Below the pieces are notes generated by a model. It was not told the origin of the DNA. It saw only the letters and a list, made by a program, of their open reading frames with translations, and ran no database searches. From Pseudobacteriovorax sp. (GTDB taxonomy: Bacteria > Bdellovibrionota_B > Oligoflexia > Oligoflexales > Oligoflexaceae), in the NCBI GenBank assembly GCA_050293845.1, contig JBNKNM010000130.1, forward strand, positions 1 through 15,154: 15,154 bases of DNA, written 5' to 3'. Position 1 is the first letter of the stretch. Each line of letters begins with the position of its first letter. The position numbers and the translations under genes are program-made. Shown here in pieces: positions 11,393 to 15,154 of the stretch.

Positions 11393-12511
11393 TTATCTTT
11401 GCATGGCCCTGAGAAAAAACTCGTTTTCATCCTGCGTGCCAATACTTACCCGCAGACATCCAGCCAAACCAGGGCCACCAGATATATTGCGCACAAGGAC
11501 ACGATTCTTTACTAAATTATGGTATGCCTCTTGGCAAGATTGCTGATTTTGCCACTGCAATAGTAAAAAATTGGCCTTCGAGGGAATGACTCTAAAATTA
11601 TTAGCTTTTGCTAGAGGGATTAGTTTGGTTCGGACGCTTTCTCGCTCTGCAATAGCGTTCCTAACATTATTTTGGACAAATTCTTGCATTTCAGGGTCAC
11701 TTAGAATGACTTTAGCAGCTTCCATCGCGAAATGATTAAGCAAGTACGGAAGTCTTACTTTTTTCAACTGGGCGATAAGAGGAGCAGCTCCGATTAAATA
11801 TCCAAGCCGGATGCCCGCAGCTCCCATTGTCTTAGACATAGTTCGCAGTATCATCAGATTAGAGTGACGCTGCAGTAGCTCTATGTACGGCTGATCATTG
11901 AACTCAAAGTAAGCTTCATCTGCCAAAAACATCGATCGGGGATGATCTCCTAAGAGTTTGTCCAATAAATTAATGTCCAAGCTAGTACCAGTGGGATTAT
12001 TGGGACTGGCGAAAACCACTAAGGATTGTTCCGGTAATGGGGGCAAACTTGCTAAATCGTACTCAAAGTCCTTATTTAAGTTCCAAGGTTCATAGGATAT
12101 GCCCGCATATTGGCAATGCATCTCAAAAAGAGCAAAGCTGGGGCGGGCAATTACAACCTTTCCTTTAACATTTCTCCCCATTGTATCAATGATCAGCGGG
12201 ATTAATGCATTCGATCCAGGGCTGGTCAATAAGCACTCCGGAGAAACCCCCACATAAGAACCGAGTAAGTGATGCAAATCAACGCCATAGGATTCAGGGT
12301 AGCGGTTCCAGGACTTAGCACGAACGCGATCGAGAATTCTTTGCTTTAACGCTGGAGGCCAGTCCCAAGGACTTTCATTCTGATCAAGTTTAACTTCAAC
12401 CTCAGGGGTATCGATCTTATAGGGGTTCGTACTGAGTAAGCTAGGCAAAAAGAATTGTTCTAGCCAAGGCTTTTCCGGCTCCTTAGGAATTATGATTCTA
12501 TCTGTACTCAT
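11393..12511 (-). CDS. hisC: Histidinol-phosphate aminotransferase (PLP-dependent class I/II)
   Basis: KLDQNESP, NRYP, SPNNPTG, DEAYFEF, RTMSKTMGAAGIRLGY (PLP lysine), SKANF and LRVSIGT motifs. Confidence 0.88.
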   Translation of the reverse strand: MSTDRIIIPKEPEKPWLEQFFLPSLLSTNPYKIDTPEVEVKLDQNESPWDWPPALKQRILDRVRAKSWNRYPESYGVDLHHLLGSYVGVSPECLLTSPGSNALIPLIIDTMGRNVKGKVVIARPSFALFEMHCQYAGISYEPWNLNKDFEYDLASLPPLPEQSLVVFASPNNPTGTSLDINLLDKLLGDHPRSMFLADEAYFEFNDQPYIELLQRHSNLMILRTMSKTMGAAGIRLGYLIGAAPLIAQLKKVRLPYLLNHFAMEAAKVILSDPEMQEFVQNNVRNAIAERESVRTKLIPLAKANNFRVIPSKANFLLLQWQNQQSCQEAYHNLVKNRVLVRNISGGPGLAGCLRVSIGTQDENEFFLRAMQR

Positions 12512-12526
12512 ATGAACTCTCCACTA

Positions 12527-12988
12527 TTAAAACAAGTTTCTTTGGCGTAGCTGATCATAAACGACGATGGACACCGCATTTGCTAGATTCAGGCTGCGGA
12601 CATTATCATGGAACATAGGGATTTTATACATTTTATTATGGTGGTGATGGTGAAAATCTTTAGGAAATCCAGCAGTTTCTTGTCCAAACACCAAAACCTC
12701 GGTATCGGTAGGAACCTCTACATAGCTAGCCTGCGCAAATTTTGAGAAAAAAGCAACTCGCCCGTCAACCTGATCATATAGCTGTTCAAAACTATTATGA
12801 ATTTCTAGATCTAAAAAAGGCCAATAATCCAGCCCTGGACGTCTGACATTTTTGTCGTCCATGGAAAACCCAAAGGGTGTTATCAAGTGCAAGCGACAGG
12901 CGGTTGCAGCTGCCAACCTTCCAATATTGCCAGTATTCTGTGGGATCTCAGGACGATACAAACAGATTTGCGGGTGACCTTGCTTCAA
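12527..12988 (-). CDS. trmL: tRNA (cytidine/uridine(34)-2'-O)-methyltransferase, SPOUT family
   Basis: LYRPEIPQNTGNIGR, RRPGLDYW, VFGQETAG and IPM..VRSLNLANAV motifs. TTG start after AAGGA. Confidence 0.93.
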   Translation of the reverse strand: MKQGHPQICLYRPEIPQNTGNIGRLAAATACRLHLITPFGFSMDDKNVRRPGLDYWPFLDLEIHNSFEQLYDQVDGRVAFFSKFAQASYVEVPTDTEVLVFGQETAGFPKDFHHHHHNKMYKIPMFHDNVRSLNLANAVSIVVYDQLRQRNLF

Positions 12989-13000
12989 GCTATTTCCTTT

Positions 13001-13624
13001 TCATTGTTTAGTTTGGATAATATTCCCATCTGTCTGTTGCATCAACTTCTTAAAGGCCCGCCTATAAAGCATAAAGCTTGCGATTTTAACGATAATGTGA
13101 CCCAAAAGTGAGGGCCATATACTTGCAGTGACTGCATACATCCAAGCGAAAATAATACCTGTTATAAAGGCCATGAGAGTCCAAGAACCGATGCGGTTTC
13201 CAGGGCCCAGGTGAACTAGGGTAAACAAGACCGCCGTGAAAGGGGCTCCTACCTCGGGTTGAATGGCACCCTGAAACATCAATTGCTCTGCCACAGCAGT
13301 AATGACCGCCAAATAAATTCCCACACTGCTCTGTAACCCGCCAATATATTGCACGAGAACGCTCTTATAGGCTTTGAAGCTGGGGAAAAACTCCTCAAGA
13401 AGAAATTGACCGATAAGTAAGACCCCAATGGATAGAGCTGTTAAGGTAAGGAGCTGAGTGATGGAAAAACTCGGGACATTCCAGGAGAATAGCACCGGTA
13501 TCCCTTGATGCTGGAAATGAACTATCAGCAAGGCAATGACTGCCATACCTCCGTAGAAGAGCGTCGAGTTCAAGAGCATTTGACCTATCGGTACGTTTTT
13601 TTGACTAACATCTTGTCTGCTCAT
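13001..13624 (-). CDS. CPBP (CAAX protease/Abi)-family intramembrane protein with degenerate motifs
   Basis: Several TM helices; motif positions AEQLMFQG, FTLVH and HIIVK. Start probably ATG 13624 (MSRQD); the ORF track extends to 13669. Confidence 0.75.
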   Translation of the reverse strand: MSRQDVSQKNVPIGQMLLNSTLFYGGMAVIALLIVHFQHQGIPVLFSWNVPSFSITQLLTLTALSIGVLLIGQFLLEEFFPSFKAYKSVLVQYIGGLQSSVGIYLAVITAVAEQLMFQGAIQPEVGAPFTAVLFTLVHLGPGNRIGSWTLMAFITGIIFAWMYAVTASIWPSLLGHIIVKIASFMLYRRAFKKLMQQTDGNIIQTKQ

Positions 13625-13729
13625 TTTATATCTCATGTGATTATCAGGAACAGCTTCACCTAGAACCAAAATGTCTTAATGGTTTTTTATTGAAAAATCA
13701 CGTAATTTCGGGAGCTGAGGAGGCAATTT

Positions 13730-14794
13730 ATGACAAGATCACAGTCCACCTACATCTGTTTTACACTAATCCTAGTCTTACTGACATTACCGATTAAGGC
13801 GAATGTACGGCTGCAAACGCAACAGCTTGACGAGGTCATCGGTCTACTGGAACTCAAAAAACCATATGCTGATAGGGAGTTGTGGCTAAAGAATGCTGCA
13901 TCCCTGCATAGAATTATTCAGAAAAATAAGCTTACAGACCAGCAGTTTGCCGTAGCATTAAATCAGTTACTGGCTTCTTCTGGCATCTACAGCCCTGCGG
14001 TATTTTCTACGGACTCATTCCCCTATCTGCAAATGCTGCACCCTGAGAAAAGCCACCTTTGGGGTTACATCGCAAAGTTGCATGGCAGCGCCTCCTACAT
14101 TCAATATGTACTGAATGCCGGATCTACTCTACAGAGAGGGGATCGCTTGGAAAAGCCTCCATCCCTACCTAAGCCAAAAGGATCTATTTCCTTAATTATT
14201 AAAAAATCTCCCCTGAAAGCCAATCAAGTGCTCAGCACTCCCCAAGATCATAGAAGCCTCCGCGAGGCATTTTTTGACTTCAGCTATCGTAGTATAGGGA
14301 CATTTACAGCACAGAATCAGCAACACCCCTACATTCATTTGCTGGATTGCGGGTCCTCCAGTCTTCCCTTAATAAAAACCTGGATAGGGAAGGCAAAAAA
14401 AACGGCCCATTTCTTTTTAGACCTGAGAGATTGCTACTGCGAAGATTCCACTGCTATTACAGCAACCATTCACAAACAGCTCCCGCAGTCCAAAATCGTC
14501 ATTCTGCAAAACAAGGGGACCCGCTTGGGAGCTGAACACCTCATCCAAAGTATAAAATCATCATGGCGAGAAAATTCTGTCAGCATAGGTGAGCCAACAG
14601 GAGGTTTTAGTAGTCCTCGCCAAGCCTTGAAGCTTAGTATGGGCGATCTATGGCTATTGATACCGGAGCACAAGCAGACTGTTGCTCCCCTGGCTCCAGA
14701 CTTTTTTACTAAGGACAGTTTTATATATGCACAGGGGCAAGACGATCTTTTAAATGCAGCACAAGCCTACGTGTTCTCGAAAAAAAGTCATTAA
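13730..14794 (+). CDS. Exported S41 (tail-specific protease)-like protein, probably catalytically degenerate
   Basis: Signal peptide (…LTLPIKA) and RBS GAGGAGG. S41 landmarks in the expected order: YIHL, FLDLR, IVILQNKGTRLGAE, IGEPTGG, APD. Confidence 0.7.
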   Translation: MTRSQSTYICFTLILVLLTLPIKANVRLQTQQLDEVIGLLELKKPYADRELWLKNAASLHRIIQKNKLTDQQFAVALNQLLASSGIYSPAVFSTDSFPYLQMLHPEKSHLWGYIAKLHGSASYIQYVLNAGSTLQRGDRLEKPPSLPKPKGSISLIIKKSPLKANQVLSTPQDHRSLREAFFDFSYRSIGTFTAQNQQHPYIHLLDCGSSSLPLIKTWIGKAKKTAHFFLDLRDCYCEDSTAITATIHKQLPQSKIVILQNKGTRLGAEHLIQSIKSSWRENSVSIGEPTGGFSSPRQALKLSMGDLWLLIPEHKQTVAPLAPDFFTKDSFIYAQGQDDLLNAAQAYVFSKKSH

Positions 14795-14801
14795 TTCGGG
14801 A

Positions 14802-14996
14802 TCAGAAATATTTTCTTTTTGGTTTGGATCTATAAAGACCAATTTCAATAGAATAGTTTTCGTAGTTTAACTTAAAATTATTTGAAAGATTGGAACTAAC
14901 AACACCACTGATGTCTCCTAACAAATTATTTGCTACCTTTACGTTAAGTGTGTTGCTTTCAGTGTAGAACTCATAACCTTCATCGGTATAATACCA
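14802..14996 (-). pseudogene. Possible orphan 3' gene fragment next to the IS end
   Basis: 64 stop-free codons in AT-rich DNA (WYYTDEGYEFYTESNTLNVKV...YRSKPKRKYF*), preceded by an in-frame TAA and with no ATG. Confidence 0.3.
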
Positions 14997-15154
14997 TTAA
15001 TCCTTCAGTGACATCTTCTCTCGACTGAAGTCGAAAGCATCCTGTAGTTAGGATGTCCGAAGCATGGTCACATGAGCCACGCTTACTTGAGGTTTGCAGG
15101 AGAATGGAGCCAGCTCTAGTTTCCTGCTACTATCGGGAAGATTTCCAGAAAGGC
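14988..15154 (-). ncRNA. Putative TnpB-associated omega/reRNA (3' part of scaffold plus ~20-nt flanking guide), 5'-truncated
   Basis: Four consecutive hairpins whose G-U wobbles favour the minus strand: GCAGGA/UCCUGC, AGCGUGG/CCAUGCU, CAUCCU/AGGAUG and CUUUCGAC/GUCGAGAG. A loop GUGAC is complementary to the terminal GUCAC. Confidence 0.6.
15008..15041 (-). mobile_element. Right end (RE) of an IS200/IS605-family element; element body extends beyond the window
   Basis: Minus strand reads GATG-CTTTCGAC-TTCA-GTCGAGAG-AAGATG-TCAC: a 4-nt guide, an 8-bp stem with one G-T pair, a 6-nt spacer and a tetranucleotide cleavage site. This is the IS608/ISDra2-type RE layout. Confidence 0.78.

Follow-up and report, generated by a model that had tools for sequence, protein, structure and literature searches.

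The last 167 nucleotides of a 15,154-nt stretch of Pseudobacteriovorax DNA (contig JBNKNM010000130.1 of assembly GCA_050293845.1; the whole stretch is called the window here) raise the question of what the minus strand encodes at the very point where the contig breaks off. A preliminary description, made from the letters of the window, read this edge as a candidate TnpB omega RNA that overlaps both the 3' end of tnpB and the transposon right end (RE), with the adjoining flank as its guide. The core of that reading is supported by five covarying hairpins, a fixed end, and a TnpB tail. We put at roughly 0.88 the probability that positions 15008 to 15154 (minus strand) are the RE of an IS200/IS605 element, containing the tail of tnpB together with an omega-RNA scaffold, that the flank is the guide, and that this particular copy is most likely a relic.

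A transposon right end with a TnpB tail

The window is an entire contig (C130) of a genome assembled in 741 contigs (one relative in the same family is Oligoflexus tunisiensis), and it ends within a multi-copy repeat. A BLAST search of the same genome with the 167-nt query 14988-15154 gives 22 matches, 12 of which span most of the 147-nt scaffold; none extends into the flank beyond chance similarity. When the genomic copies are aligned on their 3' ends, all 20 that reach this end finish with TCAC (19 with GTCAC and 1 with ATCAC) at the position of window 15008, and the DNA that lies beyond is unrelated from copy to copy. A terminal (G/U)UCAC is likewise nearly invariant among 37 aligned homologues. 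The boundary at 15008 that had been proposed from the single sequence is therefore exact. The parts of the locus that it defines are as follows:

15008..15154, minus strand: RE, corresponding to the omega-RNA scaffold; 147 nt, its 5' side cut by the contig end (from the BLAST copies and the match to covariance model R1, described below)
15008..15012, minus strand: terminal GUCAC, a motif resembling a cleavage site, and the scaffold end; the UCAC columns are invariant in alignment A2 (37 sequences)
15048..15152, minus strand: last 34 codons of tnpB and the TAA stop (from the ORF list); the TAA, at 15048-15050, falls at the start of the loop of hairpin S4
14988..15007, minus strand: flank read as guide, UGAAGGAUUAAUGGUAUUAU; a length of 16-20 nt is assumed from known TnpBs, and no relationship is seen between the flanks of the 20 copies

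One minus-strand frame is open from the window edge to the TAA at 15048-15050 and reads LSGNLPDSSRKL...MLRTS. The suggestion that this frame could be a TnpB tail is borne out by comparison with homologues. The stretch of 34 residues encoded here, LSGNLPDSSRKLELAPFSCKPQVSVAHVTMLRTS, matches without exception the C terminus of an intact TnpB of 426 residues on a metagenome contig (L082), and they fit the conserved RLxGNLPxxSxRxxLxPFSxKPQ of an alignment of 22 TnpB homologues (A1). The break in the contig falls within the element and cuts off whatever precedes this tail.

The anatomy of the element is given by its longest copy, on contig C43 (locus L009), which is near-complete at about 1.9 kb and the sole such copy in the assembly. 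It encodes a Y1 (HUH) TnpA of 149 residues (PF01797, E 8.9e-45; NF033573, E 5e-48), whose gene is divergent from tnpB. The tnpB gene itself is split in two frames of 269 and 213 residues (PF07282, E 1.5e-13) and differs from the intact L082 protein by a single frameshift at residue 254/255; the frameshifted product retains the same motifs as the aligned homologues. At the left ends of the copies, TTTAG stands directly 5' of a conserved AAYAAYGAGCC in seven of nine cases, with TTTTG in one and a degenerate sequence in the other. The element inserts just 3' of TTTAG, which is its TAM. The presence of TnpA, a divergent tnpB, and TTTAG left ends together make this an IS605-type member of the IS200/IS605 family. 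At the other end of the C43 copy (L009 217-364), the 5' arm of S4 (compare window 15038-15055) has lost 2 nt and the tnpB stop is gone as a result, so that the frame continues past the transposon end into the flank.

The protein family is a recognizable one. An intact homologue of 429 residues from Oligoflexus tunisiensis (L027 294-1580) scores 148.9 bits with the guided_TnpB model NF040570, whose cut-off is 100, and the family matches the PF07282 profile (E 4.4e-17). The best solved relative of the Oligoflexus protein, TnpB of ISDra2, is a distant one (E 6e-11, 45 bits). The preliminary description had pointed to the RuvC D-E-D residues of the gene as something to be checked, and in A1, with the residue numbers of the Oligoflexus protein, D193 (in FDPG), E341 (in DERG), and D378 (in PRD) are indeed invariant, as are the four cysteines of the zinc ribbon. 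The position of the RuvC-II glutamate that is canonical in ISDra2 is, in contrast, unconserved in A1 (positions 288-294). It is preceded by an invariant glycine, G288, and the invariant glutamate, E341, lies within DERGTTRTC, 52 residues downstream of the RuvC-II site. In the available text of Altae-Tran et al. 2023 (PMC10691335), large TnpB clades are described in which the RuvC-II glutamate has changed to glycine and an alternative glutamate downstream takes over. The family here is like these RIIr clades in that G288 and E341 are invariant while D193 and D378 are kept, and the alignment thus suggests that it belongs to the RuvC-II-rearranged class of TnpB. Whether of the rearranged class or otherwise, the family is predicted from these residues not to be nuclease-dead.

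Five covarying hairpins and a long-range helix

The minus strand of 14988-15154 folds with a minimum free energy of -51.4 kcal/mol (z = -3.0), and none of 200 shuffled sequences folds to a value as low. Four adjacent hairpins had been seen here by eye; all four exist (S2 to S5), while the total is five, with the addition of S1. In order from the 5' side of the RNA, the structural features are:

15133..15149, minus strand: hairpin S1; 7 pairs, with one U x C mismatch in the window copy; 7/7 pairs changed on both sides, 89.0% of cells paired
15096..15127, minus strand: hairpin S2, with an outer and an inner stem and a tetraloop; 10/11 pairs changed on both sides, 84.6% paired
15090..15092, minus strand: CCU in the S2/S3 linker, 5' strand of the long-range helix; covaries with 15015-15017
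15061..15083, minus strand: hairpin S3, variable in sequence and length, containing GUGAC at 15067-15071; 9/9 pairs changed on both sides, 72.4% paired
15038..15055, minus strand: hairpin S4, with the conserved loop AACUAC; 6/6 pairs changed on both sides, 92.3% paired
15018..15037, minus strand: hairpin S5, the final one before the end; 7/8 pairs changed on both sides, 98.2% paired
15015..15017, minus strand: AAG in place of the consensus AGG, forming the 3' strand of the helix with CCU; a C x A mismatch at its middle base is unique to the window copy

S5 probably also acts at the DNA level, as a hairpin of the RE for TnpA.

Support for these helices comes from the 3' ends of homologues collected from the same genome, relatives, 18 genome loci, and 38 metagenome loci. 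In a MAFFT alignment of 37 distinct sequences (A2), RNAalifold finds compensatory changes in 15 of the 21 pairs it predicts, all of them within S1, part of S4, and S5. The variable hairpins are out of register in this alignment and S2 and S3 have no support there; a covariance model, R1, was therefore built from A2 and the five-hairpin structure taken from the window row. When the 37 sequences are folded segment by segment, every one forms a hairpin at S1, S2, S3, and S5, and 35 do so at S4, the exceptions being two decayed genomic copies that fold to nothing in this segment. Searched against 70 sources, R1 gives 62 matches, each of which lies at the 3' end of a TnpB homologue locus. Its 20 matches in the genome of the window include 12 above 100 bits, and the window copy itself scores 152.6 bits (E 3.6e-38, with the 5' end marked as cut), compared with 163 for the top match.

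Realignment of the 62 matches to R1 yields 57 distinct rows (A3). All five helices are supported in A3, with compensatory changes at 39 of 41 base pairs, so the covariation of stems among homologues, which had been named as one test of the omega-RNA reading, is present. Paired cells amount to 87.3% in A3, versus 65.0% in shuffled alignments (0/500 reach the observed value) and 37-48% when partners are slid by 1-3 columns; since A3 is fitted to our own model, it leans towards the structure of R1, and these percentages are to be read with this in mind. With the tnpB stop codon placed where the S4 loop begins, the covariation of S1 to S3 falls within the coding sequence. Rfam contains no model that matches the window at gathering thresholds over its whole length, and none that matches the loci L009, L050, and L025 at E <= 1, so that the RNA is unplaced in any curated family.

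The preliminary description also proposed a pseudoknot between GUGAC (15067-15071) and the terminal GUCAC (15008-15012). Both sequences are present and they are complementary, but the pairing is not conserved. Of 37 aligned homologues, only 11 have GUGAC within the S3 region, 2 of them at another place. Across the 57 rows of A3, the five pairs would form in 58.6% of cells, compared with 58.1% when columns are shuffled; the observed figure is attained in 182 of 500 shuffles. S3 changes freely from homologue to homologue, the terminus hardly at all, and the proposed pseudoknot fails.

A different long-range pairing does covary. CCU of the S2/S3 linker (15090-15092) pairs with AGG just past S5 (15015-15017) in 96.4% of cells versus 86.9% after shuffling (0/500). 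Its variable pair is C-G in 42 cases, A-U in 5, G-C in 2, U-A in 2, U-G in 2, and G-U in 1, and the two triplets change in step (CCU/AGG 29, CUU/AGG 8, ACU/AGU 4, GCU/AGC 2, UCU/AGA 2, AUU/AAU 1). The combination CCU/AAG occurs in 1 of the 57 distinct rows, that of the window copy. Taken alone, this helix is nested and unknotted, with AGG at positions -10 to -8. RNAalifold had paired the AGG of the tail with a CCU of the 5' lead (15151-15153). This pairing does no better than chance, its observed value being attained in 322 of 500 shuffles, and the variable pair is unformed in 15 of 57 rows; the lead CCU thus carries no signal, and the linker CCU is preferred as the partner of AGG.

A second candidate joins GUA (15128-15130) to UAC of the S4 loop. 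These sequences are conserved, and the pairing is found in 87.2% of cells versus 87.0% after shuffling, with no compensatory change; some homologues have shifted complementary stretches at this site (seen by eye, uncounted). Should this pairing form, it would, together with the CCU x AGG helix, make the fold a true pseudoknot. A pseudoknot guessed from a single sequence may be wrong even though the call of the family is right.

The state of the window copy and the presumed role of its flank

If the element behaves as its known relatives do, the scaffold would consist of the five hairpins and a long-range helix between the S2/S3 linker and the bases that directly follow S5. Transcription would run out of the element past ...GUCAC, and as a consequence the 16-20 nt of flank that follow GUCAC would become the guide. 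We infer that such an RNA would be made and bound by TnpB, with a guide of about this length. In ISDra2 and the Geobacillus elements, excision by TnpA has been shown to leave a rejoined empty site, composed of TAM and flank, at which TnpB loaded with an RNA of this kind cuts; recombination with a sister chromosome then restores the element. This is the homing model discussed by Meers et al., who also describe PATE-like elements, gene-less but encoding omega RNAs used in trans (PMC10055086, available text).

The window copy is most likely a decaying relic, since the assembly lacks an intact cognate tnpB, the majority of copies are RE-only, and the window alone has a mismatch in the covarying long-range helix. 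A tblastn search of the genome with both pieces of the C43 TnpB finds no other complete gene, and the N-terminal 269 residues give one complete match and 9 short fragments. Among the 11 other copies with a full scaffold, 1 has a near-full tnpB, which is frameshifted, 2 keep about 640 nt, and 8 lose homology 135-420 nt from the end; RE-only remnants make up the majority of copies in the genome. Signs of decay in the genomic copies include mismatches in S1 and S4 as well as deletions.

Could the window copy nevertheless be full length, with an intact gene for an active TnpB just past the contig end and an RNA that is a working guide? The reading frame of its tail is intact, the scaffold score is near that of the best copies, and the contig end hides whatever lies upstream. 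Moreover, the assembly is fragmented and its repeats are collapsed: the summed depth of Logan contigs from run X1 is 135-400 over the repeat versus 9.4 over the unique flank, suggesting that there are more copies than were assembled. Against this stand the truncated state of nearly all the other full-scaffold copies and the C x A mismatch noted above. Furthermore, the end of another contig, C55 (position 28088), abuts the window end at 15154 in element coordinates, with a 3-nt overlap (GCC), and element homology in C55 starts just 102 nt further in, directly behind TTTAG. If the two contigs are joined, the window copy would be a 244-nt remnant flanked by TTTAG. A search of contig ends in the same genome finds no contig that starts with a window suffix of 8 nt or more, and the Logan contigs of three DNA runs are broken inside the repeat, with none bridging the contig end. 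A search of 12 relatives for the orthologous empty site gives no usable match, the sole other hit being a 36-nt stretch in one of them (G024). On balance, a full-length, working copy seems rather unlikely.

The truncated copies raise a further issue. Five of 15 begin at internal points of the element directly behind TTTAG, while the other 10 have no TTTAG at the breakpoint. The five are:

C85 2094-2157; C300 4004-4067; C67 8330-8393: identical 64-nt copies consisting of S4, S5, and the tail, behind TTTAG
C76 18564-18617; C55 27987-28088: other truncated copies preceded by TTTAG

The first bases of the 64-nt pieces are GTGACC. In full copies GTGACC is preceded by CTCAC, which resembles the terminal GTCAC cleavage motif. 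This suggests that RE fragments with no left end can be excised and pasted by TnpA. A separate arrangement is seen at C69 20648-20849, where a left end of 67 nt is joined to 135 nt of RE scaffold in a mini-element of about 200 nt that contains no gene, much as in a PATE.

Such observations bear on the idea that the window copy is an orphan guide module, that is, a short, gene-less, PATE-like RE remnant whose RNA would serve in trans a TnpB from another locus. RE scaffolds (12 full, 20 in total) far outnumber tnpB bodies in this genome, the TTTAG at five left breakpoints looks as if these copies had been inserted short, and PATEs that encode omega RNAs for use in trans are described in the available text of PMC10055086. 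An intact cognate TnpB, however, is lacking from the assembly; the other TnpB families of the genome, with 17 PF07282 matches, differ from this one and are expected to use their own RNAs; and the copies are decayed. We therefore regard an orphan guide as unlikely for the window copy. A more general form of the idea, in which the RE-only copies would be mobile guide-only mini-elements of 54-244 nt that carry the 3' part of the omega RNA, have no left end, and may serve as orphan guides, is similarly tentative and improbable. If it were true, TnpA would cut at internal look-alike sites, for example CTCAC|GTGACC, which mimics GTCAC|, and would paste the resulting short circle behind a genuine TTTAG; the window copy, possibly together with the C55 piece, would be one of these elements and might feed an orphan guide RNA to a TnpB made at another site, and guide modules would exceed nuclease genes by about 10:1.

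PATEs resemble what is seen at C69 in that they are short, lack protein genes, and keep the RE and its RNA (PMC10055086, available text). The difference is that many copies here have no left end, with the five truncated ones that start internally behind TTTAG among them, and the available text of PMC10055086 contains no description of such internal starts.

A purely DNA-level explanation, in which the hairpins are subterminal structures needed by TnpA and there is no functional RNA, would account for the last nucleotides being almost invariant, as for a cleavage site, and for the 64-nt mini copies, which consist of S4, S5, and the terminal motif alone and were apparently inserted at TTTAG; this part is probably sufficient for TnpA. 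However, S1 to S3 lie 60-145 nt from the end, within the coding region, and yet 26 of their 27 pairs are compensatory; the long-range helix also covaries, and the layout as a whole matches that of known omega RNAs. We give this explanation little credence.

Least probable of all is the possibility, raised in the preliminary description, of a domesticated, nuclease-dead TldR whose fixed guide represses a host gene: a general resemblance exists, in that a TnpB-type scaffold is followed by flank, but TldRs are described as immobile, nuclease-dead, and equipped with guides aimed at host promoters (PMC10705468, available text), and none of these traits hold for the element here. Its roughly 20 copies have unrelated flanks and occur alongside TnpA and transposon ends, and its protein family keeps the catalytic residues. 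Matches to the guide, which the preliminary description proposed to seek next to a TAM, were looked for in the same genome with up to 2 mismatches over 20 nt; there is no second one, behind TTTAG or elsewhere. The guide therefore resembles the flank of a transposon rather than the guide of a domesticated repressor. A mobile element with TnpA, conserved catalytic residues, and a guide that has no second genomic target makes a TldR very unlikely.

Known TnpB systems and the genomic neighbourhood

The preferred reading, that of a TnpB omega RNA at a transposon end, places the locus beside ISDra2 of Deinococcus radiodurans, whose TnpB structures (PDB 8BF8/8EXA/8H1J) represent the same general design. 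In both cases the gene for an RNA-guided nuclease sits at the right end of an IS200/IS605 element, with a guide RNA that shares the gene's 3' end, has a scaffold halting where the transposon does, and reads its guide from the flank. Both also combine several stems with a long-range pairing to which nucleotides shortly ahead of the guide contribute (PMC10097598, available text). The details differ. According to the same text, the ISDra2 omega RNA has four stems, and its nucleotides -6 to -2, beside the guide, form a pseudoknot by pairing with the stem-1 loop. In the present scaffold, five hairpins are spread over 147 nt, against four stems over 116 nt in ISDra2, and the long-range helix is formed by nucleotides -10 to -8 (AGG) and the S2/S3 linker. 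The TAM is TTTAG here and TTGAT in ISDra2.

The element is thus an ordinary one, a TnpB/omega-RNA transposon end of an already known kind, and it changes no general picture. Of modest value is a guide-RNA structure backed by covariation for a TnpB family that matches no Rfam family. The TAM (TTTAG) and the scaffold boundary have also been established, and intact relatives (the L082 and Oligoflexus proteins) identified, as a test of such a nuclease would require.

Elsewhere in the genome, at least 17 PF07282 matches come from several other TnpB families, on contigs C56, C143, C60, C323, C220, C258, and C61, with ORFs of up to 352 residues (C143). Within the window, the ORFs next to the element look by eye like ordinary housekeeping genes. 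They include an aminotransferase-like protein of 372 residues (11393-12511) and a SpoU/TrmL-like methyltransferase of 153 residues (12527-12988), followed by a membrane protein of 222 residues (13001-13669) and a secreted protein of 354 residues (13730-14794). About 213 nt separate the last of these from the element, which is downstream of it and in convergent orientation.
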